NCBI GenBank assembly: GCA_000182565.2
Contig: KQ257467.1
Length of the DNA stretch: 64,000 nt
Source: Spizellomyces punctatus DAOM BR117
Taxonomy: Eukaryota
Reading direction: 5' to 3' (one strand)
A program made the position numbers and the translations under genes. The notes beneath the pieces were generated by a model. The model had not been told where the DNA came from. It ran no database searches and was given only the letters and a program-made list of their open reading frames with translations. Position 1 is the first letter of the stretch, and each line of letters opens with the position of its first letter. Shown one piece after another: positions 1 through 64,000 of the stretch.

Positions 1-50
1 CCCAGACCACCCAGGCCACCTACCAAGAAAGCAAGATCCATGTAGTAGAG

Positions 51-3000
51 GTGGCTCCATACTCTTTAAGTACCCCCAAAGGGCCAAGAATTCCCCAGAG
101 TCACTTGCTGACTGTGCAAGGTAGAATCCAAGGAATCCCAGTAACCATTCTCCTGGATAATGGGGCAAACCAACTCTATGTGTCACAGTCCTTTGTCAAG
201 AAGGCACAACTGGTGACTCATTCTCTCCCTGGAGCAGAAATCTCTATGGCTGATGACAGAAAGCACCAAGAAATAGGCTTTGTCAAAGGTCTTCAGTACT
301 CAGTAGGAACCTACACAGAACAGTCAGACTTTATAGTAGCCCCAATCAAGTTTGACTTGATCCTGGGTATACCTTGGTTTGCCTGGAGGAATCCCAGTAT
401 CAACTACAACAAGAACACTGGGACCTTCACCACCTCCCAGCACCCCAGAGTCAGATGGTTTGTTAAGCAGGCCAGCTCTTCCAACAAATCCCAGAAGTCC
501 AATCTTATCACCATGGTATCAGCAAAGATGTTGGCCAGAACACTGAAGAAGAGGACAGCAACAGCTTTTGCTGTGTATCTCAAGAACCCTCAAGATACCA
601 GCACCCCTCCAGACACCATGGATTCCAAAGTCACCAAGCTTCTTGAAAACTATCAAGATGTCTTTGCTGAAGAGCTTCCCCCAGGACTTCCCCCTGAGAG
701 ATCAGTAGATCACAGAATTGAACTCAGTGACCCCAACCAGACCCCCTGGAGACCAACCTACCACCTCTCTTCTTTGGAGTTAGAAGAACTGAGGAAGCAG
801 CTTTCAGAGCTTCTGGAGGCAGGCCACATCAGACCATCCAAGAGCCCATTTGGAGCACCTATCCTCTTTGTTAAGAAGAAAGAAGGTTCTTTGAGGATGT
901 GTGTGGACTACAGGGCTCTGAATAAAATCACCATCAAGAACAGATATCCCCTCCCTAGGATTGATGAGCTGATGGATAGGCTGAATGGGGCCCAGGTGTT
1001 TACCAAGCTAGATCTGAAGTCAGGCTATTACCAGATCAGAGTCCACCCAGAAGACATCCCCAAGACAGCCTTCAGAACCAGATATGGTCACTTTGAGTTC
1101 CTGGTCATGTCCTTTGGAATGACCAATGCCCCAGCCACTTTCATGACTTTGATGAATGATGTTCTAAGACCCTTCTTGGACATCTTTGTCATTGTCTACC
1201 TAGATGATATCCTCATCTACTCCAAGACCCCAGAAGACCACCTGGACCACCTCAAGCAGGTTCTACAAGCCCTTAGGCAGAACAAACTGTATGCCAACCC
1301 CAGCAAGTGCCAGTTCTTCAAGCAAGAAGTAGAGTTTCTTGGCCATGTAGTCTCACATGAAGGAGTCAAGCTTGACCCCAAGAAAGTGCAGACTGTTCAA
1401 GAATGGCCCACCCCTCAGAGTGTCACTGAAGTCAGACAGTTCATGGGCCTGGTGACCTACTTCCATAGCTTTCTGAAGGACCTGGCAGAGCAAGCTGCAC
1501 CATTGACAGACCTGTTGAGAAATGACAAGCCCTGGACCTGGTCTGAACCTCAGGAGAAAGCTTTTCAGCAGCTGAAGGATATGGTCACCAAAGCCCCTGT
1601 ACTCAGACCCTTTGACCCAGCCTTGCCTACCACTGTCTTCCCTGATGCCTCAGGCTATGCAGTTGGTGCATGGCTTGGACAGGATGATGGGAAAGGCATG
1701 AGACCAGTTGCCTACCATTCCAGGAAGATGGCCCCAGCAGAGACCAGATATGACACCAGAGAACAAGAGCTGTTAGCCATCCATGATGCCCTCAGAGTTT
1801 GGAGGCCCTACCTGGAAGGAACCCCCTTCAAAGTTATCTCAGACCACCAGCCCCTCAAGTGGCTACAGAACCAGCCCTTCTTGACCAGAAGACAAGCCAG
1901 ATGGGTCATGAATTTCCAATCTTTTGACTTTGAGATTGGCTATGGCCCAGGAAGACTCCACACAGTGGCAGACATCCTGTCTAGAAGACCAGACCTGGCC
2001 CCAAGATGCATCAAGTGCAAGGCCTTGGTGACAGCAGAGTTGAATGCTGTGACCCACACCACCAGCACCCTTCAAGAGAGATTGAAGACCAGTACCACAG
2101 AAGACCCAGAACTTCAAGAGCTCATCCAAGCTTTGGATGACCCCAGGAGACCAGAAGACCAGCAACAAAGGCTCAAGTACCTCAGCCATCAGGATGGGTT
2201 ACTCTATTTCCAGGACAGGATCTTTGTTCCTAGTGACCCAGACCTAAGGTTGAGCCTACTCCAAGAAACCCATGACACTCAGTATGCTGGACACTTTGGC
2301 ATCACCAAGACCCATGATGCCCTAGCAAGGCATTACTACTGGCCAAGGATGTACAAGGACATTAAGAAGTATGTCAAGTCTTGTGATTCCTGCCAGAGAA
2401 GCAAACCTAGTCAGCAACCACCAGCAGGCTTGCTGCAGCCCCTCCCAGTACCCAAGACCAGATGGAGCCAGATCTCCATTGACCTGATCCCTGACCTACC
2501 CATGACTTCCTCTGGTCACAATGCCATCTTTGTCATTGTTGACAGATTGTCAAAGAGAGGCCACTTCATCCCTACCACCACCAAAGCCTCAGCCAAGGAC
2601 CTGGCCCTGCTCTTCTTGAAGCACATCTTCAAGCACCATGGCCTCCCAGAAGTGATTGTATCAGACAGAGACACCAAGTTCACCAGTTCATTCTGGTCCA
2701 ACTTGATGCAACTCTTAGGCTGCAACACCCTCCTAGCCACTGCAAGACACCAGCAGACCAATGGACAGGCAGAGAGAACCATCAAGATATTGAAGATCTA
2801 CCTCAGAGCTTCCCTGGAGTACAACATGAAGAATTGGGAAGATCTTCTCCCCTTTGCTGAGTTTGCCTACAACAACAGTGTCTCAGAAACCACAGGCTTT
2901 ACCCCATTCTACTTGGAGAATGGCCAGCATCCCAGGACCCCAGCAACACCACCAGGAGAAAGCAATGATCTTGAAGCAACAGACTTCCACCAGTATATTC

Positions 3001-3541
3001 AGCAACTGCTTCAAGTAGCCAAGGATAACATGATACTGGCCCAAGAAAGACAAGTTCAGCAAGCCAACAAGTCTCTCAGCAAGGCCCCAAGCTACCCCCT
3101 AGGCTCCAAAGTTTGGCTGTCTAGAGAAGGTATCACCCCAGAAGAAGAAGCCCAGAGGCCAGCCCAGAAACTTCTTCACCCCTGGCTTGGACCTTACAGA
3201 ATCAAGGCCAAGGATGAATTTCAGAATTACACCCTGGAGCTCCCCAGCACCATGAAGATTCATCCAGTGTTCCATGTGAGACTCCTCAAGCCTTACTTGG
3301 ACCCCACAGAGGAGTTCCCTACCAGACCAGTACCCCCTGAGCCTGAGCCAATTACCAGCAAGGAGAAGAGTTTTGGGAAGTTGAGAAGATTCTTGACCAC
3401 AAGACCAGAAGGAAGAAGAATCTCTACCTCATCAAGTGGAAAGGCTATCCCTCCTCTCAGAACACCTGGGAACCAGAAGAAAGCCTCCTACCCCATGGCA
3501 GAGAAATCTTGAAGGAGTTCCTAGCCCAGAAGGGAGCTTAA
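51..3541 (+). CDS. pol: Gypsy Pol polyprotein (protease, RT, RNase H, integrase, chromodomain after a 1-nt frameshift near 3355)
   Basis: Motifs LLDNGA (PR), [11 protein letters not shown] and YLDD (RT), DASG and SDHQPL (RNase H), H..GH..CDSC, SDRD and NGQAER (IN). A second frame from ~3359 reads [41 protein letters not shown] and ends at TAA 3539-3541. Confidence 0.93.
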
Positions 3542-3557
3542 TCTTAAAGTGGGGGAG

Positions 3558-4107
3558 TGTGACAGAATTCTTCTGTCAGTGCTATAGTTATACTGGTTAG
3601 ATGTGGTTCCAAACTAGTGGTCACATGACTTTGCTGATGGTGTCAGCATTCATTGGACCAGAATTAGATAAATAAGCAGATTTAGCCATTTCTGGCTAAA
3701 TTAGATGAGTATCCTGACACACTGGCATCTGCCCCTTTCAATCAAGTGGCACAGTGTATTTAGGATGACTTGTCTCACTTGTGATTGGCTATAAATGGTG
3801 CAATAGGCTGACAAATAGTTTAGGATGATATGTATAAGATCTGATTGGTTGCAAATGGTGCAATAGGCTGACAAATAGTTTAGGATGACATGTATGAGTT
3901 GTGATTGGTTGCAAATGGTGCAATAGGCTGACAAATAGTTTAGGATGATGTGGGTGAGATCTGATTGGGTAGTTAGGATATAGCATTTGTCAGCCCCTTT
4001 GTCTATAAAAAGAGGACCTCTCTGAGGCCCCTCAAAGAAGAATAACAAGTAGTAACCAAGTCTTCCCTAGTTTTCTGTTGTCTTCTTGTCCCTGCTAGCC
4101 TGTTACA
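3558..4107 (+). repeat. 3' LTR of Gypsy element A (550 bp)
   Basis: Starts TGTGACAGAATTCTTCTG directly after the PPT and ends CCTGTTACA. TATA-like TATAAAAAG at ~4004. Both ends match the solo LTR at 5708-6163. Confidence 0.9.
3757..3980 (+). repeat. 60-bp tandem repeat (~3.5-4 copies) inside the LTR U3 region
   Basis: Unit approximately TGATTGGTTGCAAATGGTGCAATAGGCTGACAAATAGTTTAGGATGAYA..., repeating with an exact 60-nt period across 3781-3960. Each unit has a reverse CCAAT box (ATTGG). Confidence 0.9.
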
Positions 4108-4216
4108 AAGAGCCACTGAAAATGGTGCCAAAGTTGAGTTTGGCAGCAAGGGATGCTGTATCAAGACTTCAGACAGCCAGGAGGCAATCCAGGGAACTCT
4201 AGGGGGCGGTCTATAC

Positions 4217-5134
4217 ATGTTTCATGCAAGAGAACATGCAAACATAGCCTCTGGAATGAGTTTGGACCTCTGGCATCACAGGTTAGGACATCTGAACATC
4301 AACAGCATCAAAATCTTGGCTAGGAACCAGCTGGGAAGCAGTCTGGAGGTCAAGAATCACACAGAAACATCACCATGTGAAGCCTGTGCCATTGGAAAGA
4401 TTACCAGGTGTCCCTTTCCAAAGGGAGAAGCAGCTAGAGCAGCTCTACTGCTGGGGGTGGTTCACAGTGATGTGTGTGGGCCCATGAAGACACCAAGTCA
4501 TGGTGGAGCAAAGTACTTTGTCACATTCATTGATGACAAGTCAAGGATGACGGCAGTTTATCTTCTGAAGGAGAAGAGTGAGGTTCTCAGCATATTCAAG
4601 GAGTTTGAGGCCTGGGCAACCAACTTCACAGGGCAGAAGATCAAAACTCTCAGATCAGACAATGGGGGAGAGTATGTGGGCGAAGAATTCAAGAAATTCT
4701 GCAAGCAGAAGGGAATTCAGCAGCAATTCAGCACCCCCTACACACCAGAGCAGAATGGTGTTGCTGAGAGGATGAACAGAACGCTGGTGGAAATGGGAAG
4801 GTGCATGCTGCACCACAGTGGACTCAGCTACAAGTTCTGGGGCGAGGCAATCATGACAGCGGTCTATCTCAGGAACAGGAGCCCCACTGCAGCACTCAGC
4901 AACCAATCCACACCATTCCAAGAGTTTACAGGCGGTAAACCAGATCTCCAGCACCTCAGAGTGTTTGGCTGCGTGGCCTACACTCATATTCCAAAGGAAA
5001 AGTGGTCAAAACTTGATGAGAAGGCCAAGAAGGCAGTCATAGTCGGCTACAGCACTCAGAGTAAGGCCTGCAGACTGTGGGTACCTAAAATAAACCAAGT
5101 ATTTCAAGGGACATCATTATTGATGAAAGCTTGA
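4217..5134 (+). pseudogene. Copia integrase region (truncated pol)
   Basis: 305-aa ORF with HHCC zinc finger, DDE core and SH3-like HLRVFGCVAY..KLD; frameshifted near 5100. Confidence 0.88.
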
Positions 5135-5707
5135 TGTGGGAAGCTCAAAGGCAACAGAAGACATCACTGCAAGAAGACAAGATTGAGATTCCTCTGGGAG
5201 GGGAGCCTTCATTCTTGGGCAACCAAGAGGGGCTAGGGCTGGATGGAGAGACTCAGAGAAGGTCCAATGTCACACTAGAACGCTATGTCTGATTGAGAAT
5301 CAGATATAGGAATATGTCAAACTACCTCTGGGGAGATGAACAGTTGGCTGCAAGTGGGTCCTCAACCTGAAACTCAACTCACATGGGTCATTAAAGAGGG
5401 AGGCACAAGGCAAACCTGGTGGCCAAAGGGTACTCCCAAGTTGAGGGACTGGACTACAAGGAGACATTTACACCAGTAGTTAAGTGTGCCACCATCCAGA
5501 TATCCCTCACACTGGCAGCCATGGGGGACATGGAGATCTATGTGTGGAGAGAGGACATCTATGTGGACCAGCCAGAAGGCTTCACCACAACAGGAGGACT
5601 TGCTTGCAAGCTGAAGAAGAGTTTGTATGGTCTGAAGCAGGCTCCAAGTGCCTGAAACAAAGTCATTGACCAGCAATGGACTTCCACAGATATGAATCAG
5701 ACCATTG

Positions 5708-6163
5708 TGTAACAGAATTCTTCTGTTAGTTACTTTGTCTTTAGTTAGTCAGTCAGTAGTATCAGTAGTGTAGTAGTTTGGACTTAGAGATTTTCAGTGC
5801 AAGTCCATTAGTCTTAAAATGGCAGGCACATGTCTCTGAAACAAATGTTAGTAAGGAGGCAGGCCTAAAGGTTGATTTACCTAAATTAGGCAAGTCATAC
5901 TCCTGAAAGGAAAATGTGAGTCAGAGACACATGTCTGAAACAAATTCCCCTTACTGAGCTGCAGAAAATAATTTTTGCTGCAAAGATAAGGAGGATACAT
6001 TGTGACTCAGTAGTTTAGAAGTCTTTTCATTGGTTAGAGATAAAACTGAAGCCTTGGCATTTTTGTCTATAAAAAGGGAGTGTTCCCACACCCCCCTCTA
6101 ATAGAATAACCAAGTTTTCCCCAAGTCTTCCTAGTCTTCTTGTCCCTGCTGCCTATTGTTACA
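5708..6163 (+). mobile_element. Solo LTR (456 bp) related to element A, inserted in the Copia RT
   Basis: TGTAACAGAATTCTTCTG...ATTGTTACA termini flanked by 5-bp TSD CATTG (5703-5707 and 6164-6168). TATA and R/U5 similar to LTR 3558-4107. Confidence 0.92.
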
Positions 6164-6951
6164 CATTGACTCTACACCAATAAGCTGACTGGCATCTACC
6201 TTATCCACTCTGTGGATAACCTGATTCTGGCTTCAAGCAATGTTCAGCAGCATCAAGAACTCAAGAGGCTACTCAAGAACCAGTTCAAGATGGCAGATGT
6301 TGGTGAATTGGAATACTTCTAGGTATTCAAATCAGTAGCTACATGGCCAACAGAATCAGCTGGCTATCTCAGCAGCAGCACAGGCTTCAGATTCTCAAGA
6401 AACTCAAGATGGAGGACTCCAAACCTGTTGTGTACTGTTTGCATGCTCAGCCCACTTTTTCAAATGCACAGTTGTGCTCAGTTTCCTGTCACTGTTTGGA
6501 AAGAGGAGTAAAGCTAAAAAGAGTACAATATTATATATTAGGTTCTTCTTTATAAATATGTATTAAAGTGAAATCAGTCCTGAATATATAGAAAAGGACA
6601 TCATTAGGTCAGGTAGAATGTGCAACTTACATTATATATTATATTAAAATTTATTTTTTAGTATATAAAGGGCAGCAAATATATATAAGTATTATTCTTA
6701 ATTACAGACAATAATTCTGATACAACCATACAACTTACACAACCTATTCACTGTTCAGTATAGCAGAAATATAGCAGCATTTATATTACTAAATTTGATA
6801 TTATCTCATCAGATTTGTGTACTTTTTATTACAATATACTTAATATAGGAAAGGTATCAGAAATAGCCTTAGAATATCAAGCTATCTATTAAAATATTTC
6901 CCTGCAACACAGCTTTTCCCCACATCATCTGCTGGTGCTCAATATACCATG

Positions 6952-7017
6952 GTTATTCCTCCAATAACTTGAGGACTTCTATGTGTTATTCCTCCAATAA
7001 CTTGAGGACTTCTATGT
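6952..7017. repeat. Perfect 33-bp tandem duplication
   Basis: GTTATTCCTCCAATAACTTGAGGACTTCTATGT at 6952-6984 and 6985-7017. Confidence 0.9.
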
Positions 7018-7077
7018 GTTAGCTAGTGAGGAGTTTCTGAGAAAATGATACAGAAAACAGAATGGGAATAAGGGTAT

Positions 7078-7677
7078 TGTAGCGGATTTTTTGTTGGTAG
7101 ACTACGGTAAAGACGACTTGGGTCTCCTAGCAGGTTATGTGGGTGGCCGTACTAGGAATCATAGTCTCCGAATCCTTTCTTTGGGCGTCGGTAGCGACTT
7201 GGGGGCGAGAGGCAAGGAGAGTCAGTTAGTTGTGAACCGAGCAGGATTTAGAGGCTTCGGTACGGGTGATCAGGCCGTTGAAGCGCTCTGTTAGGTTCCT
7301 GTTAACCTAAGATTGGAGTTGAGAAGCGAGTTATGGGGATTTTGTGTCGCTACGGCTTCTGCCCCCAACTTATTTTATTGAATACATCCTTTTTATACAA
7401 GATTCTTGGATAAACTGTTAAACTAAACTAAACTAATGGGTGTCGCTGCACCGCAACTGATTTATTGGTGGCGGTACCAATCTCTTCCTTTTCCGCACTG
7501 GCTCGGGCCTCCACAGGTTGTACAAGGCATGCTGAAATCTAATGCGCCAATTGCCATTCTCCGAACCAGTTTTTTTGGTCGCGGTAACCCAATCGGTGGA
7601 GTTGGTCACGCGATTCGTGCTTCCCGCGTCCGATTTGGGCTTACTCGCGATCTCTCGAAGACGTCCTCGTTGTTACA
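7078..7677 (-). repeat. 3' LTR of element B
   Basis: TGTAGC...GTTACA on + strand; direct repeat of 15369-15968; minus-strand AATAAA near 7373-7379. Confidence 0.97.
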
Positions 7678-7688
7678 TCCCCCCTTTG
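7678..7688 (-). other. Polypurine tract of element B
   Basis: + strand TCC-C-run-TTT immediately inside the LTR, read as a purine-only A/G run on the minus strand. Confidence 0.85.
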
Positions 7689-7734
7689 AAGAGCCAACGC
7701 ACCGGTGCTCCGAGCGGGGGTGTTGGGACATCAA

Positions 7735-10700
7735 TTACCAGGTCGGTACCAGATCTGTGGGGTCCGCTTCATCTGCATCTTGGTTCACGACCCAGATGAT
7801 ACTGGCACGGCCACCGACGTTGCAACAAAACCAGATTTGATCTGTTGCGGTACGAACGATGGTACCCGGGGTCACGTCGGGGCCAGTTCTGGTTACGTAG
7901 AGGGCCGTAAAGGTCTCCGCGGCCCTTTTCAGGTTTGTCGCGCGGAAATGGTACTCCGCGTGCTCGTGATGTCGGGGTCTGGTGAGCCTTGCAGAGGCTT
8001 CCGCTGCGTTCGCCGTCCTTAGGAGCACCGTCCTAGCTGCTTCAATGATGGCGGACGCAAACTCGTGGGTGTCGTCGTTCGGCCAATCGGTGAACGGAGC
8101 CATTTTTCGGCTTCCCGCCTCGTGTTGGGGAACCCCGCGGTCAAGCCAAGCGGCGCACGGAGCTGGGCGCCCTCTTTTTCCGGGTTTTTTCGCGTCGGCA
8201 ACTATTCCAACCACTGCTTCACCACCATCGGTGGCCTTGCTGTAGGGGTCCGCAATGTGGTTTGTGAGGGGCTGGCCCACCGCATAAGGTTTCGGAGCGT
8301 CGACTCCCAGCCAAAACTCATGCCCTGGAGTCTGCAGCGGCACGTTGGGGTTGGTCCGAAGCTGATGAACCCAGGAGTGAACCCAGGTAGCGATCGCAAC
8401 CCCAAGGCAATCCAGCACGCCCTCGGCCTCGAAGTCGCCCGAGTCTTCCTCCCAAGGGTAGCCGGACATGTACGTGGAGGGTACGCTCACTCCTGCTTGT
8501 CCTCTGAGATCGGTGTTCATTGTGTTAGAAATGGAAGTTTTAGTTTCGGTGTCGATAGAAGGGGTTTGCGAAGCAGAGTGAGTGTGTAAGGGAAGTAGGT
8601 CGTGGGCGGTTGAAGAAGAAAAAAGAGGGGGAGCGTGCAGGGGCGTCCTTTTAAGGTTGTCGCCGGCTGATTTTGACAGCTCAGACGCGCGTAAGCGTGA
8701 TCGGGAGGCTTGGTGTGGCGTTCTCGACTGGTGAGGTAAGCCACGCAAAACTGGTTTTCTTTCTGGTGAGAGGGCGTGATTATCATGTGAGCTATCGTCC
8801 GGATAAACCGCGAAGCATTGGTGGTCGGAAGCATAAGCCGTATCTTCCAGGGCGTCGCCTGCAAGGCTGACTACCAAAGAGTCCTCTACTAGTGTGCTAG
8901 TGGGAGCTCTGGATCTCCAGTACTCTTCTAAGGCTTCGGAAGCCTCTGTTAGGGCTTCCTCTGGTTCCCAGGTATCCTCATGGGGTGGGTATCCGGACCA
9001 ATGTATTCGAAATTGACGTTTTCCGCGCCTGGTTCGATGGTCTACTATCGCTTCCACTTCAAACTCGCCATCTGAAGCGTCAGAATCCTCCGCTTGTGCT
9101 TCCGCAACCTTTTCCTCAGTTTCGGCGTCGACAGGCTTCTGGTACGGACGTAATTTCGATATGTGAAACCATGGATGAAGTCGTCTCATCTTGTCTGGCA
9201 GTTTTAACTCATAGTTGTCACGGAGAGGGTTACAGTCGGTCACCGTGACTGGTCCCAGCCATTTCGGAGCGATCTTGGACTCATACCCTGCTAGGTTTTT
9301 CGTGCTCAGAAGCACCTTATCTCCTCTCCGGAACTCCAAATGTCATCGCGATAAATCATAATATCTTTTCTGCGAATCCTGGGCTTCGATCATCAGATCT
9401 CGGATAAGGATGTTTAGGTCACCGAGGTGTTTACAGAGCTCCTCCGCATCTGCATTTCTGGTTTCTGACGGCCTTTCGACGATGTCCACCAGTGGATTGT
9501 GGGGCTCATAGCCTAGGTCCATTCTGAATCGCGTCATTTTTGTCGCCTCATGTACTGTATCGTTGATAATGAATTCCGCAACTGGAAGAAAGGTGTCCCA
9601 GTCGTCTAATCGGGTGTTGACCATTGTGGTAAGGACCTGCAAGACTGTTGCGTTGTCTCTTTCTGATTGTCCATCACCTTGAGGGTGGTAGGCTGTGGTG
9701 AGCTCTTGATTAATCTTTAGGTTTTTGCAGACCTCCTGCCAAAATCGACTCGTAAATTTGGAGTCGCGGTCCGAGATAATGGTCTCCGGGATGCCGTGCA
9801 ATGGGGCGTAGCGCTCTATAAAGAGTTCCGCGACCTGAATAGCTGTCGCAGTGCTCTTGAGGGGCCATACGTGGATCCTCTTTGAGCATTTACATGCTAT
9901 TAACCAAAAGGCGTCGTACCCTCTGGAAGTAAGTGGGAGCTTGGTTACGAAGTCAGTCGTGATGACTGTCCAGCGTCCCGGAGCTGGTGGTATGGGTTTC
10001 AGCAACCCCGGAATCAGTTGCGGTACCCTTTTTGAGTGTTGACAGGTTTCACATCCTGCGCAGTGTTTTCTGAAATCTTGTGCCATTTTTGGCCACCAGA
10101 CTTGCGCTGCAGCTCTAGCGTAGGTTCTTTCGAATCCGAAGTGTCCTCCCCCCTCATGAAAAAGCTTGCGCACCTCAGGGGTGCAAGCAGGGGGCACGTA
10201 AAGGCGCCAAAGGTCTTCGGAGACTGAAAAACGGTGCCACAGCAGGTTATCTGCACGTTGCCAGTCCTGAAGAAAGCGCATGTCGGTGGTAGTGTACGTG
10301 TCGGGGCTGGTCTCCCATAGAAGGGTGCGGGCCTGTTGGGCGATGGGGTGGAGCGGGCCGGTGAGGCCAGCATGGATGGCGGTGATGAGTGCGGGCTGTA
10401 ACGCCAAACGAAAGATGGCATCTGCCAGTGTTGAGGAGGGTGCGGGACCGGCTGGCGGGGTGCGCGGCCGTCGTCCTTTGCGTTCCGACACCCATATTTC
10501 GGTCGCGGTAGAGCAAAGAAGAGTTTCCGCGCCAAGTAGCCGCAAAAGTGTATCAGCAACTATGTGGAAGCATCCTGGTTTGTGTATGATTGTCATCCAT
10601 TCGGACCAGTAACTAAGATCGAGGGCCCAGCGGAGGAGCTTTCGGTTCTCGCCTTTGTATTTGGCGAGCCACAAAAGAGCTCGGTGATCGGTAATGACCA

Positions 10701-13700
10701 TGAAAGGCAGGCCTTCGAGGTATGGGCGGAGTTTTCCGAGGCCCCAAATGAGGCATCCGGCCTCGAGTTCGACAGGTGGGGCCTTCTTTTCCGAGGTGGT
10801 GGTGCCTCGGGAATGGTAGCACAGTGGGCGTTTAGAAGCATCCGGCTGTAACTGTTCGAGCGTGACATTAAACGCTGTGTAGGAAGCGTCACTGTGAAGG
10901 GTGTAGGGGAACCCTTTTCTGGGTGCCGCAAGCACTGGAGCTGTTGTCAGAGCCTGCTTGGCGGCTGCAAAGGCAGAGTTTTGGGAGTCGGTCCATGAAA
11001 CTTCACGCTTCGCGACGAATCTGTGCAGACCTTGGTCGGGGCGCTTGCGAGCAAGGCGTCTGACACAAAAGGGGTCAATGGGCAAGTCGGCCAGCAATGA
11101 TTGGCGTAGATTGACCGCCGGTAGGTCTGAGGAGCTAGATTTAAGATGTTGCGAAACCTCAAATCAGGCTCCGGTTGCTGTGATTGTTGGGGCCACTGCC
11201 GTGTCAAGCATGGATGGTGAATTGAGCTTTTCAGCTCCTTTCCTTGGGTCAGCGCGACCCTTTTTAAGGTCTCGGTATTCACGAACGCCCTCTTGGATAG
11301 CGTCTTGCAGGGGTCGGACGAGTTCCGCGTAGCGAGGGATGAATTGGGCATAGAACCCAAGGAGACCCACGAAGGACCATAGGTCACCAATAAATTTAGG
11401 TCATGGCCAATCGACTATGGTTGCGACCTTGTCTGGATCGGTAGCGAGGCCCTGGGAAGAGGCAACGAAACCGAGGGCCGTGAGCTGGTGAAAGAGCCAT
11501 TGACACTTGTCGAGTCTTAGGGTGAGTTTGGCCCTGGAAAAGCGGTCGAGCCAGTCCGCGATGGCATCTAGGGCTTCCGCGGCTGTCTCCGCTCGTGTAT
11601 GGATATCGTTGACGAAGTTGTTGATATTTCGCCATTTGGAGGGACCCAAGGTGTCGTCCATCACCCGACAGAAGTGCGAGGGGGCAGTCTTGGGTCCGAA
11701 GGGCATGAAAAGTGGTTTGTAGATGCCATCGTGGAGTCTGATCGCGAGCCATTTGCGTACCGACGTATCAGTGATGGCGATTTGGTAAAATCCTTTGTTT
11801 GCGTCACCTCCCGATATGTATCGGAATGGGACTGCGATGATCCAGTTCAGGATGTCGAGCATGATGGGAAAGGGATATGGATCCCAGGCCATGCAGTCGT
11901 TGGCTCGGCGATAGTCGAAGGCTACCCGCGGGGGTTTGTCTGTGTAGCGAATAATAACAGGATCGCTGGCGAAGGTTACTTCGGTGGTTCGTTTCCACCT
12001 CTGAAGCCCCATCATGGTGTCTCGCTCCGTCTCGAGGGCTGTCCGCTCCAATGGAGAGTACGACCGTGGCCTCGAAAGGGGTGGCGGAGCCGAGATAAAT
12101 CGAGGCACATAAGGAATCTTGGTGTAGTTCCCTATGAGATGACCCTCATAGCTGAAGGCTTGATGGAAGTGTTGTAGAATGTTGATTAGGGCCCAGACCA
12201 CGGGTTTGGGTTGTTTGAGATCGACGTGGAAACGTTCCGCATCTTTTAATTGGGCTTTGAAGGCCCCTGGAGCCTTCTCTGTAGAGTTGAGGTTCCATTT
12301 GTTCCGAAGTGTCTGCCATTCTTCTTCGGAAATGTTCTCTTCGGGGTCCGCGACCGAATTATGGGTCGCGGTGGACAGTTTGAGGCCTAACGGGGCCGTT
12401 GTGCTAGCTGCGGTGGCATCAAGAGGGTTTTCGATGAGGAAAGTTTGGGCTGCCACGCGTGTCTGTCCCGTGATTAACATGGTTAATCTAGACTTCTGAG
12501 CTTTGGCTTTGGTCAGCCGTGGCATTGACACATCCTTCATGAATTCACCCTGCTTGGTTTTGTATGGCGTGCCGCGCATGTGATCGGTATCCAGCTCATC
12601 TGTTATGGAGCAGGGGATAAGGATGTCTGGATTCTTGAGCATCACCACGAAACTGGGTAACGGGGGTTCCTGAACCAAGGTTTGGAGTTTCAAATGTCCC
12701 AAAACGTCGTTGGCTAGGATGATGAGAGGTTTCCCGTATGCGATGACCCGAAAGTAGGCGCGGAAAGTCAGGTATTCTCCGCCGCGGCCTCTGAGGGAAG
12801 TTTCGAGGCATACTGTCTTGGTAGATGAGATACGTCCACCAATGCCATTGAAAGCCATCGTTTCCACATCCTGCAAATCGGTTTCGGAGAACAGAAGGCC
12901 TTGGTATGTGTCGGAAATCAGAGACTCGCAGGCCCCTGTGTCTAGTACCACAGGTGCCCAGAGCTGTGCGATGACGGCTAGCGTCCAGCAAGGCTGCGTT
13001 TGGGTCTTAGTCTGGCTTTTGAGTACATCGCCTAAATCTACTGAGTAGAAGGCGTTGATAGAAGGCACCGCGATCTCGAAATGGGGCGCGATGTCGTTAA
13101 TTGTTGCTTCCGTAGCCTTGATCACACTCTCAAAGTGTTCTCTAGTTTTGTTGTTTTGTGGTTTTGTTGTTTTATTCTGGCAAGCAACTTGTTCGATAGC
13201 CAGCATGACTATACGCGTCCGTTCGCTCTCTTCGTGTCTTTGGAGACGTGGATGGTCTTTAACGTGCCGAAATTTGGGGTTTCCGCGATGATAATAATAG
13301 TCTGAGCGAACGATATTGCCTGTCAGGAGAAATGCCACCAGTTGCAGGTTGGCGTATGCTTCAAAGATAACAGGATCTTCAGAGCTCCACATCAAGAATT
13401 TCTCGCACTCGTCGAGCTTTATCCAGGCAAGGAGAATCAAACGAGGGGTACCGTCTTCTCGGACCTTTCGCAGGATTTGATCCTTGTCAGCTTCGGCTGC
13501 GGCAGCGATGTAGAGGTGGTGGGAACTCCACGCAACTGCGTAGGGGTCGTTCCCGAGGTGCCCGGCGCCTCGCTTCGGTTCTTTGGCAAAGAAGCTGAGC
13601 GCGCGGGGGTTGTTGCCCATCATCAGAGCCACTTGCAGGGTACCCCAGATGATGGCTATGTTGTCCCAGACTCGGTCCCAGCCCTGCGTGGGCGTGCGGG

Positions 13701-15213
13701 GGTCCTCTTCCTTGGTCACCGTGACCTTGGAAAGAGGTGCGGTCATCAAAATTGTTGATTCCGAGTGCTTGGGTGAATGAAAGAACCCGATGGTGTGGAA
13801 TCCTTGATTAGCGGCTTCCGTTCTTTCCAGTTCCGAAGCCGAAAAAAGAGTCTCGGTGGTAGTGGACGTCGAGTCCAGCTCCACTATGTACGCCTTCTTC
13901 GATTCCTGTTTGGGTTTCCAACCTGAGGGCATGGGTGCTCCATATGGTCCTTTCTTTCCATCTTCAGGATCTTTTCGGTTCGGGTTCTGCCAGCAGAAAA
14001 CATTCCAATGCTTTTTCTGACAGAATTTGCAGGGTGCCGGTGGTTCCTTGTTGGGGTCCGGAACCATCTTCTGAGGACCATCGTGACCCTTTTTGGGGTT
14101 TCCGGTTTTATGCGGAGCCGTCTGCTTAGGGCCTTTGTTGGTTCCGGTCTTTTGTGACTTCTTCTGAGCTTCTGCAGCACCGCTGTAGCAAGGGTCTCAT
14201 TTTCTGGTGTCATCAGAGCCGAAATAAAGGCGCAGGAAGTCTTTTAATTTGGTCAGGTTCGTGACGTTACAGGATTTGACCATGATTTGGATGTTGCTGG
14301 GCAATTGTTCGACTATTAGGTCGAAATGCTGGTCAGCGGGACATTCTATGTTTGCCCGGTCGCCATAAGCGAGGCGCTGGAGATGAGTTTTGTGGTCGAT
14401 GAACACGAGAAAGCTGCGAAATTCTTTGGGGTTCGCATGGCAGCGCACATATTCGGTTTTGCGCTTGGACTCGGTTAGGGGATCTCGGAACTCTCGAAGC
14501 AGTTCCTCTTTCCACCTTTTCCAGGTCCATGAGCGAGTTTCCTGGGCTTCCAGAGTGTAAAACCAAGCGTCAGCAGGGGTTTTCTCGGCTATCATGGCTG
14601 GTAGGAGCTGTACCATCCTGGCATCCGACGTTGCGCTAACGTTTTGAAGAAGTTGGACTTTGTTAAGCCATTCTTCAATGTCTTGGTTTCTTCTGCCCAT
14701 AAACTCGGGTACGTCCTTTGCTTTCAAGGAATCGACCTTGGTGTCGCTGGCCCACGGGGCCGCTGGCACTTGGATTGGAGGCACCGCACCTGAAAAACTT
14801 GGTTTGGTACGCTCCCTTGGTGTGTCCGCCGTTTCCCACGGGGTTGCGGACCGTTCTCTTGTAGCTCGTGCTATGGGAGGTTGTTCAGGCAGCGGGCGAT
14901 GCGCTAGGGCTTCTAAGGCTCATGCGAGGCGCTCATCCGCCGCTGTCTGACGTTCGGAAAGCCTATGAAGCTGTTCCGTAAGGTTTTGAGTTGCCAACTG
15001 CATTGCAGCAGTCGAGCGGGCAATGTCTTCTTTTAACGCTGCCACTTCAGAGGCCATTGTGGCCAAGTTAGGGGCTTCCGGTTCGACGGAAGTGGTCCCT
15101 GAACGCCTTGGGCATGTTGCGGGAGGGACTTCGACGTCCTCCGCAGGACCCTGACTACGAGTCTGGATCACAGGTGAGCGGCCTCGCGTTGGTGAGCGTT
15201 CGACCGGCATCAT
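7735..15213 (-). pseudogene. Single-frame Gag-Pol-chromodomain-extension polyprotein of element B (~2,492 aa), interrupted by five TGA codons
   Basis: Track ORFs 14920-15312, 14197-14784, 11401-14067, 11164-11370, 9343-11097 and 7735-9339 share one frame and are separated only by single TGA codons. Motifs: capsid-like IEEWL..W..WK, CKFCQKKHWNVFC knuckle, LDTGA, FDYRRAN, FVND (YxDD position), SDAS, TDH, GHFG..CETC, SDRD, GQSER, chromodomain FEVEAIVDH..W.GY..TWEP. Confidence 0.9.
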
Positions 15214-15350
15214 TCTCGGTTTCGTGAAGTTCTGTCTCTGAAATGAGAGAAAAGGTTTCCGAGTAGCTACCTGAGTGGATCTTGGTTTGCGCAAGAGTTT
15301 TGGTACGACCAAATAAGGTTTTCAGCTGAATTTGAGAGGGGAAGGCGGTT

Positions 15351-15368
15351 CGTCGCGCTTCTCCACCA
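15351..15368 (-). other. Primer binding site, complementary to a tRNA 3' end (tRNA-Ala type)
   Basis: Minus strand TGGTGGAGAAGCGCG directly after the 5' LTR. Its complement ...CUUCUCCACCA fits the eukaryotic tRNA-Ala acceptor end (..UCCACCA). tRNA identity is inferred. Confidence 0.75.
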
Positions 15369-15968
15369 TGTAGCGGATTTTTTGTTGGTAGACTACGGTA
15401 AAGATGACTTGGGTCTCCTAGCAGGTTATGTGGGTGGCCATACTAGGAATCATAGTCTCCGAATCCTTTCTTTGGGCGTCGGTAGCGACTTGGGGGCGAG
15501 AGGCAAGGAGAGTCGGTTAGTTGTGAACCGAGCAGGATTTAGAGGCTTCGGTACGGGTGATCAGGCCGTTGAAGCGCTCTGTTAGGTTCCTGTTAACCTA
15601 AGATTGGAGTTGAGAAGTGAGTTATGGGGATTTTGTGTCGCTACGGCTTCTGCCCCCGACTTATTTTATTGAATACATCCTTTTTATACAAGATTCTTGG
15701 ATAAACTGTTAAACTAAACTAAACTAATGGGTGTCGCTGCACCGCAACTGATTTATTGGTGGCGGTACCGATCTCTTCCTTTTCTGCACTGGCTCGAGCC
15801 TCCACAGGTTGTACGAGGCACGCTGAAATCTAATGCGCCAATTGCCATTCTCCGAACCGGTTTTTTTGGTCGCGGTAACCCAATCGGTGGAGTTGGTCAC
15901 GCGATTCGTGCTTCCCGCGTCCGATTTGGGCTTACTCGCGATCTCTCGAAGACGTCCTCATCATTACA
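15369..15968 (-). repeat. 5' LTR of element B
   Basis: Direct repeat of 7078-7677, flanked by the PBS on the inside and TSD GTAT on the outside. Confidence 0.97.
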
Positions 15969-17665
15969 GTATGCTATTCTCTTATATAGGTCTAGTCTAC
16001 TATTGTAAGAACCACTAGGGAATATAGGAGCAGCTAAAAAGAAATATACACACATATGGCACAGTGGAATATGCCTATCAGTGATGCCACTTGGAGGGCT
16101 ATTAGCCTATAACTGCTGTAATAACCTTATGGCATATATTTCTTTGCTCAGCTTAAACCAATTGGTTATTAGATTCTTACTTTAGAGCAAGTAATAACTG
16201 GTAATACTCTGATTATTATGTAGTTCCCTAATCACTGATGAGGTATCTGGTTAGATTAAGGTTAGCCATGCAATTAATCACAACATCATGCCACATCCCA
16301 TTATAACTGCTGATATTATGGACTCAAATCTTTGCAAGTTATATAAATCTTGTAGTGGATTAAAAATGCCTCCTATATATCAGGGTATACATAATATAGT
16401 TGATAGAGATATTTCTATAAAATACAAATACTTGCATATCCATATTTGCCTTCTGTCTTATTATATATTGGATCTTCTGTCAAGTGCATTGCATGCACGG
16501 TAGGCGGTCCACACAACTCGCACAGATCTGGTACGGATCACGTGAATGTTCCTCAAACGCGTCCAGTCCCGCCGTCGTCATCTTGAGACGTCAGCCTTAA
16601 CCAGCCTGGCTGATTTGGGTGAGCCTTCCTCAAGGAACAAGCCAACATCCGCATTACAATCCATATCAGCTGGATGGCTTTTGGATTGAGGTGCCATAGG
16701 AACGCCAAACTCACAGCAAAATTTGTCTGGCACGCCAAGCACATTTGTTTAGGAAAGGAGCAAACGATGGGGGAGCCGATTAGAGTAGAGGCTGGTCAGT
16801 TGACGGTCATGCTAAACTTCAAATACGTATTTAATCTTATAGACCAGTTGGAATACCAGGCGATTTTGCTGTTCGTCTCACACCAGGCAGTAATGCTACA
16901 TGTATTGCTGATAGGCACGGCTTCGTATGCATCGTGAGTACACAACATTGCGACGGCTGTGTGTGGTGGTGGACCTGCAATCACATATTTACTCTTTCCA
17001 GGGTCAAATAGGAGAACTAGTGAACCACTACATCTTCCGGCCGCATGACGCTTCACAGGATCCACTTCGACTTGAACAGGTTCTCGTAACCCTTCCGGAA
17101 GTTGAATATGTGGAAAGGCAGGTCAAAGCGCCACGTAGTAAAAGGGGTTGAGAGGACGTGAATTTCCAGCGGCAATAAACCAAATATTTGAGCATAGGTT
17201 CCTCTAATTCGGTTATAAGTTCCCTCTGCCGCGTTTCCCTCTGCCTCTCGTACACCGAGGGCCAAGAAGCGGCCCTTTCTTTTTCTTCTTTATTGGTTTC
17301 GCGCCTTTCCCTGTCCTTCCCTTGCCGCGTTTGAACGGTGATTTCCCATATCGCGGTGTGGCCAAAACCGCACAACTAACGAAAACTGCAGCCAAGAGCA
17401 TAACGACTGCTAAATGCTTAGAGGATGTCCAATAATGGAATGCCCCATTCGCTGTTTCAACCATCGGGAATTTAGGGCATTTAGCGATCTGGTAGAACGA
17501 CCATCTTTTCCTAGTTGGCTGGCCGGAAAATCATGTGATTCACTTGAATCATCACTATGGCAACCCGGCTAACTGAACTTTGCAAGCACCCGCAGGTGGG
17601 GAGGCTTGCAAGGCAAACGCGCGGCTCTCATCATTTGGAACAATTCCAGCAGAACAACTACCGCC

Positions 17666-61229: not shown

Positions 61230-64000
61230 ATGGACCAGCTTTCGGCACCATCCAATTTAAAAAAGAGTCCTTCAAGCATTATACAGAATGCTTCAAAATA
61301 TAAAAACATATTCTCATCGACGCCAACAAAAACGCTATACACGCATCTCAAGATAGACGGAACTGCAACAACGAAACTCAAGGTTTAGAGTTGCTGCTCT
61401 CTCCGGACTGATACTCGGATAGAAAACTGATCTCCACTCCTCCAGTGCAATGAATTGTTCTTTTCAGTGCCTTTTGGCACTGGGAGTATCGGAGTATTTC
61501 CAATTCCACGTACTTCCGTTGTGGAAACCATCAAAATCGAAAGCTCTGCACCGCTGTTACTGCGTAAATACCTCCTTGCTAGAGCAATTCTTGTCCAGTT
61601 CCTAACCAATCTATACTCGAAAAAGTCCATGGAAGACAATTACAGGACTATGAATTTTCTCCGCTTGAGCCGACCATTATTGCCTCTTCAACTCGGTCAG
61701 ATGGTGTCGTGCGGCTGTGGAAAATACCAACAGATATTAGTACGCATCCAGTTGGCAGAGAAATAGATGCTGCAACCATATATTTGGCTGCACATGAAAG
61801 GAAAGTGGAGTTGATAAAGTTTCATCCAACTGTCGGCAACATCTTGGCCACAAGTTCAGCGTAAGTGTGAGCCAAGCGGTCATGCCGATGTTTGCAGTTT
61901 GGCATACAATAGTTGCTTGGAGTGCGAGGCAGTGTCTCAGAATTACTTTGCTTTCTTCAAGTGACTCTACGATCCGTCTGTGGGACATTGAACACATGCA
62001 AGATCGACTAGCGCTGACTTGTCCCAACGACACCGTAGCGCAAAGTATCAGCTTCGACTACTGTGGGGACATGGTAACCGCGATCACTTCTGCGGGAGTT
62101 CTTGTGGTGTACGATCCCCGCGCAAGCACCGATCCCGTCTACACCACGCAAGCAGATCATGTAGCCTCCAAACCCTGTCGAACTTGTTGGCTTGCGCCCG
62201 ATCCCACTGTTGTGACAACGGGCTTCAACAAGCAGAGTGCCCGTGAGATTGCGGTCTGGGACACAAGAAGCTTGCAAAAACCCATTCAGGTGCTCGAGAC
62301 TACGGGAACCGGTGTCGGGGTACTGCAGCCGTTTTGGGATCCTGCTCTCCCGTTAGTGTACTTTGGGTCGAAAGGCGAGGGCATAAGGGTGTACGAGTTA
62401 ATGGAAGGGACGTTGAAATATGTAAATGCTGTAAAGGTCGAAAAACAAGCGGTGAGCAATGCAATGAGAAGTTCCGAATGTTTAATCCATCCGACCCTGA
62501 TCCATTCCGTAGACAGCGGTAGAACTTCTGCCTAAACCCCTTTGTGATAGTCGGAAATGCGAAATCGCCAGATTCTTGAGACTAGGGTATGTGATTTGGG
62601 ATGGACTCTGGGTTAGACAAGTTCTTGCCTACTTATTCGTCCCGACAGTACGGACAACGCGGTAGAAACAACCTCCATTCATGTGCCACGAGTTGACGGC
62701 GAAAAGACCTTTCAAGCCGATTTATACCCGCCAATACCTATAGTCAACCCGGCAGCGAGCTCCCATCAATGGTTTGATGCCGGTGATTCCATCGAACCGA
62801 TGATGGTTGATGTGGTCGCCCCTGAGCCTGTTCAGGTGACGGTAATTTCAGCGCCGGACGACGAGGACGTGTTGAAATTTCAAACAAAGGGAAGTGGCCC
62901 AACAGTTGAAGAATTGCTATTGCAAAGGAAAGACACTCTTCGACGGCAGAGTACGCAAATACGTCGCGCTCCAACTGCAAAATCTCATCCCATCAGCCGA
63001 TCAAGTTCAGGTGCTTCGCTGTCGGCCCTGGGATCCACGCAATCTGAACCTTCTCAAGCTACTACTACCGTTTATCTAGACGGAACAATCGATATTGAGC
63101 GCAGAGGGTGGTTTGGAACCGTATGGGAGCGGCACTATCTTTCGCTGAAAAAATCACGTCTGTACGTGGGTTTGGATCAGGACGCAGAAATGCCCCTGTA
63201 TTTTATTCCCTTGGCCAGCATTCGAAAGCTTGATGTGTTCAGTCTTGGGCCAGATAGGGGGGATGGATCACATCATCTGGGACTCGTTATTGAGACTTCA
63301 GAAAGGGTCTGGAGGTTCAAGGCCGGGTCAAAACCAGAACGGGATATGTGGTTCAATACGTTGACATCCCTGCTAACGGTTCAGGGATCGCTTGGCGTGA
63401 GTAGTGCTCCACTCCCTTCATTACCGAAGAAAGAGTCGCAGACTCGGTTGGCGAATCGGTCGTCGACTCTGGTCGTCGGAAATAGGGAAGGGGCATCTTT
63501 GATTGGAAATATACAGTGTCTCATCTCCAGCGGTCCAAGTTCGAGGCCTAGTAAACCCACTTGGACTGCACGCTTTGCCGTGCTGGATGAAGAAGGTCTC
63601 CTTCACTTGTACCCACCAGACATAAAAGCATATACCGAAAATAAGCCGCCCCTCGAAAGCTTCAACCTTAGTGCAGCAATCTCTGTGAGGCTGGCTGACT
63701 TGTCATCAGACACAACCCCACTTGACCTACTTGCTGACAGTCAGATACACACCAGCAACCTCACATGCTTCCAAATAAACACCACAAAGCGTAAATTATT
63801 GTTTCGGTCGCGAAATGCACATGAAGCAGCGAATTGGGTCTTGCAAATTCGGAGGGTGGTCGTCAGCAAGGGATTTGTTCCCGCCAAGGAGATTGTGAGC
63901 GACGACGTTCTTGAGGGTTGGGTGGAAGTAAAAAGTGGAGGTGAGCGGGTTAAACTCGCTCCTCGGAGATATTGGTTGGAAGTGATTGATGGGACCTTCT
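61230..64000 (+). CDS. Coronin with multiple PH domains (class-4 coronin/villidin-like), 3' end outside the window
   Basis: Coronin N-terminus SKYKNIF; WD repeats (AHERKVELIKFHP, STIRLWD, TTGFNKQSAREIAVWD, GSKGEG); CEIARF; VPR...FQADLYPP; then PH1 (~63070-63365), PH2 (~63500-63860) and the start of PH3 (~63900). Confidence 0.88.

Follow-up and report, generated by a model that had tools for sequence, protein, structure and literature searches.

We analysed a stretch of 64,000 nucleotides from Spizellomyces punctatus DAOM BR117 (assembly GCA_000182565.2, contig KQ257467.1), referred to below as the window. Its first 4107 nucleotides carry the 3' part of a retrotransposon, here called element A, which, judging from its domains, is a Ty3/gypsy chromovirus, and which contains no CpG dinucleotide at all. 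Contigs of other copies indicate that this CpG-free state is a property of the A family, not of one decayed copy, and they show signs of recent activity of the family. In our opinion, the state of the family is very probably the outcome of a mutational ratchet at CpG, with purifying selection as its filter. The following paragraphs weigh this reading against four others.

The initial annotation of the stretch, made from the letters alone, had reported about 4.1 kb of GC-balanced DNA without CG, the first one standing near 4207, and arginine encoded by AGA and AGG; both statements proved correct. By direct count, there was no CG in positions 1-4206, where about 232 would be expected, the first occurred at 4207, and G+C was 48-49%. 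Ratios of observed to expected CpG (o/e) were computed in successive bins. While 119.2 CpGs were expected in 1-2000 (G+C 0.49) and 112.9 in 2001-4000 (G+C 0.48), none were observed in either; for the whole of A (1-4107), 236.8 were expected and none found, and the chance probability of such a zero is about e^-232. The absence of CpG in A is confirmed, far beyond chance, and nowhere across the element was a normal frequency found. It also includes the non-coding long terminal repeat (LTR) at the 3' end of A, where 21.4 CpGs would be expected at 40% G+C. From position 7083 on, o/e was 0.81-1.03 per 2-kb bin, so the host DNA itself is not CpG-poor. The CpG-poor zone is nevertheless broader than A, spanning 1-7100 and again 16001-16500, since the flanking Ty1/copia relic into which A is inserted (element B, 4108..7077) is depleted as well.

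What replaced the CpGs can be read from the other dinucleotides. Within 1-4107, TpG exceeded expectation by 86 and CpA by 88, together accounting for roughly three in four of the CpGs that are missing. This indicates that most losses were transitions, whereas the recoding of arginine required other changes. One alternative would be passive decay in situ of a single old copy, whose frame stayed open by chance. The CpG poverty of the whole nest of transposons (1-7100) and the excess of TpG and CpA in A are both compatible with such a history, and so is the presence of His in A at two conserved arginine positions (residues 254 and 488).

The coding sequence tells more. Frame 3..3512 on the plus strand is open over 1169 codons (product P0001) and contains 68 arginine codons, 50 AGA and 18 AGG, with no CGN among them. 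NCG codons are absent, too. Junctions of a C-ending with a G-starting codon are lacking as well, although 102.4 would be expected from the 393 C-ending and 305 G-starting codons present. Codons that precede a G-starting one end in A (137 cases), T (107) or G (61), and those that precede any other codon end most often in C (393 of 864).

As for the condition of the element, the initial annotation had called A nearly intact, with pol open for more than 1,100 codons and its motifs preserved. The statement about pol stands. Pfam domains RVT_1, RT_RNaseH, Integrase_H2C2, rve and SH3_Tf2-1 were recognized in P0001, and the order of protease, reverse transcriptase (RT), RNase H and integrase along pol is that of Ty3/gypsy elements. 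All catalytic residues are present: D52 of the protease, D401 and D402 of RT, D548, E589 and D614 of RNase H, and H757, H764, C794, C797, D827, D888 and E924 of the integrase. The protease active site reads D-N-G (P0001 residues 52-54, about nt 156-164), an unusual variant: as the middle residue of this triplet, 67 of 109 homologues have Ser and 12 have Cys, and A has Asn. The intactness of the copy, in contrast, holds only in part, because the chromodomain is frameshifted. The portion of pol from protease to the SH3-like domain occupies 3..3353 (plus strand, from open reading frame and Pfam matches; its 5' end lies beyond the window), and is followed by a one-base frameshift at 3354..3355, which the contigs of other copies identify as private to the window copy. 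The chromodomain continues in the -1 frame at 3356..3540 (Pfam Chromo at 3356-3537, E=3.9e-20), ending with the true pol stop TAA at 3538-3540; the last approximately 50 codons of frame 3..3512 are a frameshifted misreading of it.

Downstream of pol on the same strand, a run resembling a polypurine tract (3546..3557), a function suggested by its position, directly precedes the 3' LTR. This LTR is 550 nt long (3558..4107, TGTGACAG...CTGTTACA) and is delimited by its sequence and by contig breaks at 3558. Its 3' end is exact: the LTR ends with CTGTTACA, and contigs have loose ends at 4107/4108. About 3.5 tandem units of 60 nt (3759..3968, 84-88% identity, each with GATTGG) look like a repeated enhancer and might have a regulatory role. 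GATTGG is an inverted CCAAT, and the units lie upstream of TATAAAAA at about 4005. The motif GTCACATGAC, for which the initial annotation had proposed an E-box role, is present at 3620..3629 as it had stated.

Next to the window copy, we considered other copies of the family, as represented in contigs of sequencing runs. Contigs of four runs (X1, X6, X9 and X14), out of 24 runs listed, were aligned to positions 1-7400. Parts of the stretch were present in 20 of the 24 runs, and the eight runs with at least half of its sequence words were of one sample. The 24 also include rhizosphere, soil, RNA and metatranscriptome runs (X11, X16, X17, X19 and X20), which lie outside this comparison. X1 and X6 come from one sample, which may be the source of the window itself, and X9 and X14 from others; word depths of contigs were not taken as copy numbers. 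Main contigs of X1 and X6 cover positions 1-3822 at about 99% identity, with 2 differences in 535 nt (1-535), 22 in 2311 nt (506-2816), 4 and one gap in 680 nt (2881-3560) and 4 in 265 nt (3558-3822). In X14, which bears a second organism label, seven contigs matched, each at least 95% alike. Altogether, there were 249 differences between contigs and window, 40 of which were listed (28 in A, 12 in B); the list includes 24 of the 32 differences of the X1/X6 main contigs, none of which makes a CpG.

Not one of the 28 listed differences in A (1-4107, judged in window context) creates a CpG, against 3.4 expected (P=0.017). In B, by comparison, 5 of the 12 do so (Fisher P=0.0012). Related copies with signs of activity are hence not CpG-rich at the listed sites. 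Of the 22 listed coding differences among A copies, 15 are synonymous and 7 non-synonymous, where 6.8 synonymous ones would be expected (P=2e-4). Furthermore, every contig that spans the frameshift of A has one extra base there, and either version of it returns the chromodomain to the pol frame. An extra T behind 3354 was found at a word depth of 26.2 of 29 in X1, 29.2 of 35.7 in X6 and 3.5 of 3.5 in X9, and an extra G behind 3355 at 2.85 of 29 in X1 and 6.54 of 35.7 in X6. From this, it follows that the family sequence is open where the window copy is broken. Past 4107, other A copies continue into different flanks, as seen from the loose ends of contigs. The initial annotation had suggested that this lineage lost its CpGs while still replicating under purifying selection; the CpG-free copies and the synonymous excess support this. 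An artefact of the assembly was rejected, as independent contigs agree with the sequence of A.

These copies also bear on passive decay, which does not predict that copies about 99% identical to A should be equally CpG-free at the listed sites; that the contigs do represent other copies is argued by the loose ends at 4107 and by the extra base at 3354. The protein of A points in the same direction. It agrees with 269 of the 307 columns conserved to 85% or more among the 109 homologues, and 6 of the 38 mismatches lie behind the frameshift. Five mismatches resemble products of CpG mutation (R254H, R488H, D840N, D920N and E931K). However, H254, H488, N920 and K931, together with the cluster at 907-931, recur in P0004, the best protein match to A (65% identical), and most other inspected mismatches are common to P0004, too. 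The CpG-like residues shared with P0004 would therefore be old features of the lineage, and the two His in particular lose their weight as marks of decay. At 93 aligned positions where four relatives use CGN arginine codons, A has Arg at 57, all AGA or AGG, and otherwise includes Lys at 13, His at 5 and Gln at 4; Cys, Trp and stops do not occur among them. Since CGA makes up 9 of 32 shared arginine positions in the relative L004 and 12 of 30 in L029, several TGA stops would be expected in A had it decayed in situ from an ancestor of this kind. Extensive non-synonymous change derived from CpG is thus not seen in A. With the older host element B still retaining CpGs as well, we regard passive decay of one copy as highly improbable.

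The surroundings of A offer a view of what happens to CpG at this locus. Element B (4108..7077, plus strand) is a decayed relic with a Pfam integrase, a partial RVT_2 domain in another frame and 10 CpGs; four of its first five stops are TGA. Element C (7078..15968, minus strand) is a CpG-rich chromovirus of 8.9 kb (o/e 0.94) that encodes a chromodomain, integrase, RNase H and RT on the minus strand. Its LTRs, of 600 nt each, occupy 7078-7677 and 15369-15968, and the target duplication GTAT stands on either side of the element. About 790 residues upstream of its RT have no Pfam match, an unusual length for a gag-protease region. Both A and C were inserted into B, which is confirmed by the loose ends of contigs, and the contigs show different sequence before 4108 in other copies of B. 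Beyond C, a CpG-free relic tail (15969..16497, plus strand; the next CpG is at 16498) fits the far side of B; no Pfam domain was found in 15969-17000. A BLAST search revealed no further copies or solo LTRs of A or B in the rest of the window.

Because it was inserted into B, A must be younger than its B copy. Region 4219-5100 of B has kept 8 CpGs, and its family contig has at least 4 more. As B retains CpG in spite of its greater age, A probably arrived CpG-free; a younger A with about 230 CpGs would still keep most of them. The five CpG-creating differences in B read CpG in contigs where the window has CpA, the contigs leaving 6176-6916 of B uncovered. At position 4175, the CpG occurs in only one of three X6 contigs, namely the one without the neighbouring change at 4174.

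Element C serves as an internal control for CpG decay in situ, its LTRs being taken as identical when C was inserted. Today 14 sites distinguish them, of which 13 oppose CpG to TpG or CpA; at one site, the two LTRs have TG and CA, respectively. Expressed per nucleotide, 13 of 90 within CpGs differ, and 1 of the 510 outside them (odds ratio 86, Fisher P=1e-10). Two in-frame TGA stops, one near 14197 and the other near 9343, interrupt the pol of C. Transitions from CpG to TpG or CpA on both strands thus make up 13 of 14 differences in the C LTRs and 5 of 12 in B: the CpG-rich transposons of this genome are mutated specifically at CpG, on both strands. APOBEC-like editing was considered as a source of the loss and rejected, as the loss in A appears CpG-specific and symmetric.

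The agent might instead have been repeat-induced point mutation (RIP) or a RIP-like, repeat-induced deaminase, and not spontaneous deamination of 5-methylcytosine (5mC). What speaks for it is the very high ratio of CpG to non-CpG change in the C LTRs, above the approximately tenfold figure known from mammals, although the confidence interval of this ratio is wide. RIP of the ascomycete type, with its bias from CpA to TpA, would give a high TpA/ApT and a low (CpA+TpG)/(ApC+GpT); in A, the two indices are 152/223 = 0.68 and 686/426 = 1.61, on the wrong side of the usual thresholds, and CpA is enriched where RIP would deplete it. Nor does the TCG hypermutation of basidiomycetes match, as only 3 of the 10 first CpG changes in the C LTRs were in TCG context. 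Such an origin seems unlikely to us.

Relatives of A were available chiefly from metagenomes, and served as outgroups only. A scan of metagenomes revealed no close DNA relative of A, the best having 62% amino acid identity over partial stretches. Among 47 metagenome loci encoding relatives, none was CpG-free, with o/e from 0.11 to 1.49 over the matched stretch. The closest relatives with DNA, L026 and L036 (62% amino acid identity), have o/e of 1.17 and 0.87, which means that the purge of CpG is derived in A. Some relatives are CpG-poor, and it is instructive where their remaining CpGs reside. In L007 (open frame of 1235 aa, o/e 0.34), 31 of 48 lie in CGN codons; in L018 (28-4455, 1476 aa, o/e 0.19) it is 29 of 35, and in L002 (728-4582, 1285 aa, o/e 0.10) 14 of 21. 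In eight CpG-normal relatives examined, only 21-42% of CpGs were in CGN codons. With CGN at none of 68 arginine codons, A lies beyond L007, L018 and L002. Retention of CGN in the CpG-poor relatives appears to be the order predicted by a ratchet under purifying selection, with A as its putative end point. Both L002 and L018 are chromoviruses of soil metagenomes with fully open frames. They may represent further lineages that have covered part of this path.

The same comparison raises the question whether the CpG-free state evolved elsewhere, in a different and heavily methylated host, from which A came by horizontal transfer. The nearest protein relatives of A are metagenomic and the named matches are algae and plants, and near-identical contigs occur under the second organism label of X14; these would suit a foreign origin. 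On the other hand, the CpG pressure required is demonstrated in this very genome by the C LTRs, the closest DNA relatives are CpG-normal, and no donor is in sight. We consider horizontal transfer very unlikely, more so than RIP-like mutation.

A model based on the ratchet would account for these observations as follows. The host would methylate CpGs of transposons, and methylated CpG would turn into TpG or CpA at a rate far above that of mutation elsewhere. Every inserted copy would decay at its CpGs, and only lineages whose proteins still work would transpose on. Synonymous CpGs, i.e. those in NCG codons and at NNC-G junctions, would be lost first, and CGN arginine codons last, by rare recoding to AGA or AGG. 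As no protein requires CpG, the ratchet could proceed to zero. At this end state, the element would offer no substrate for CpG methylation and would be immune to the CpG decay that is now killing its neighbour C. The family-wide CpG-free state, the purifying selection among copies, the CpG-specific decay at the locus and the graded relatives come directly from the data; deamination of 5mC as the mutagen, and any escape from silencing, are what we infer from them.

Published data agree with the premise of the model. According to PMC12695648, 5mC of Spizellomyces is restricted to transposons, and that of S. punctatus is symmetric at CpG. Supplement file 2 of that article lists a between-strand CpG methylation correlation of 0.65 for 'Spun', and a figure legend there contrasts the strand-correlation values with species lacking DNMT1/3/5. 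According to a preprint (10.1101/2025.03.17.643675), transposons of S. punctatus carry H3K9me3 and H3K27me3.

Mutation alone may suffice, with no selection for evasion. With 694 TpG and CpA sites and the rate ratio of C, the neutral equilibrium would be about 2 CpGs, so that zero in A does not demand evasion. It is nonetheless conceivable that the loss was an adaptive counter-defence, favoured because CpG-bearing copies become methylated and silenced, whereas A would stay transcribed in heterochromatin targeted by its chromodomain. Zero CpG in A is more extreme than in any of the 47 relatives, no new CpG has appeared among the 28 listed differences where 3.4 were expected, the non-coding LTR is at zero as well, and the family shows its signs of recent activity. 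Against this, the zero of A would not be significantly below the neutral expectation, and the published histone marks lie on S. punctatus transposons also. We regard a selected counter-defence as tentative, less probable than not. The same caution applies to the related picture of A as a methylation-proof resident, which maintenance CpG methylation could not mark and which would settle, via its chromodomain, where CpG-bearing rivals die. If counter-defence were true, the CpG-poor, intact relatives from soil metagenomes would be lineages on the same path as A.

Several points weigh against the ratchet, or limit what can be drawn from it. The CpG rate ratio in C depends on a single non-CpG change, and its lower bound is approximately tenfold. 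The eight unlisted differences of A in the main contigs could be CpGs. The word depth of C contigs is high (95-108 at 7164-7400), so CpG richness is clearly not fatal in the short term. Given the histone marks on transposons, absence of CpG need not mean absence of repression, and the escape of A from methylation is true by definition and for CpG sites only. The window copy of A is itself probably dead, given its frameshift. Finally, the window holds only the 3' part of A, with gag, primer-binding site and 5' LTR beyond base 1, so that what is said here on the age and integrity of this copy extends to that part alone.

The nest of transposons lies in a chromosomal region of ordinary genes. Intron-bearing genes for ATP synthase gamma, trehalose-phosphate synthase/phosphatase, a GTF3C1-like protein, acetyl-CoA hydrolase and an F-box FBO_C protein occupy 18233-58007. 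The CpG o/e of these host genes is about 0.8-1.0, which places the nest within 2 kb of ordinary euchromatic genes. Farther on, the product of the open reading frame at 62617-63999 matches a Spizellomyces sp. 'palustris' protein at 93% identity, with other chytrids as the next matches. Together with 61798-62535 upstream, this frame corresponds to a coronin-like WD40 protein with PH domains. Its homologues in chytrids are unusual fusions, continuing with gelsolin and villin-headpiece domains.

CpG depletion is usually read as the tombstone of a dead copy. In the A family, it is complete in the presence of all catalytic residues and of purifying selection. Element A beside element C amounts to a natural experiment on CpG methylation versus transposons in an early-branching fungus, and A together with its relatives reveals the order in which coding sequence sheds CpG, with synonymous sites first and CGN arginine codons last. 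It raises the questions whether a CpG-free element escapes silencing and whether it is longer-lived. Since the host genus is culturable and transformable, and nanopore methylomes, RNA-seq and histone-mark maps have been published, these questions are directly testable.

In its architecture, A resembles chromoviruses of fungi and green plants: it shares the order protease-RT-RNase H-integrase-SH3-chromodomain, the TG..CA ends of the LTR, the polypurine run before the 3' LTR, and insertion into another transposon. It differs from them in having no CpG, where the 47 related elements range from 0.11 to 1.49, and in having no protein match closer than 65%. The literature searched, which covered few subscription journals, yielded no account of a retrotransposon free of CpG from chytrids or other fungi.

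Depletion of CpG in methylated transposons is known for vertebrate L1, Alu and endogenous retroviruses and for fungal transposons; the cases known to us are old dead copies or show partial depletion. The likeness lies in the change of CpG to TpG or CpA on both strands, here visible in situ also in B and C. The difference is that the depletion of A is total and extends to every arginine codon, in a family that looks functional and was probably recently active. Retroviruses of the HIV-1 type, whose CpG suppression is linked to ZAP, a CpG-sensing RNA-binding protein of vertebrates, are similar as reverse-transcribing elements recoded away from CpG under purifying selection. The pressure on A, in contrast, is a mutation bias at the DNA level, seen at the locus itself, and to our knowledge no ZAP-like CpG sensor is known in fungi. 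Ascomycete RIP and the TCG hypermutation of Pucciniomycotina, both C-to-T hypermutation of repeated fungal DNA, are unlike the present case, as the indices of A and the contexts in C do not fit them and A was not inactivated by the process. The process that probably lies behind the state of A is a known one; here it has gone to completion throughout a family that looks functional, and a control for CpG decay adjoins it.

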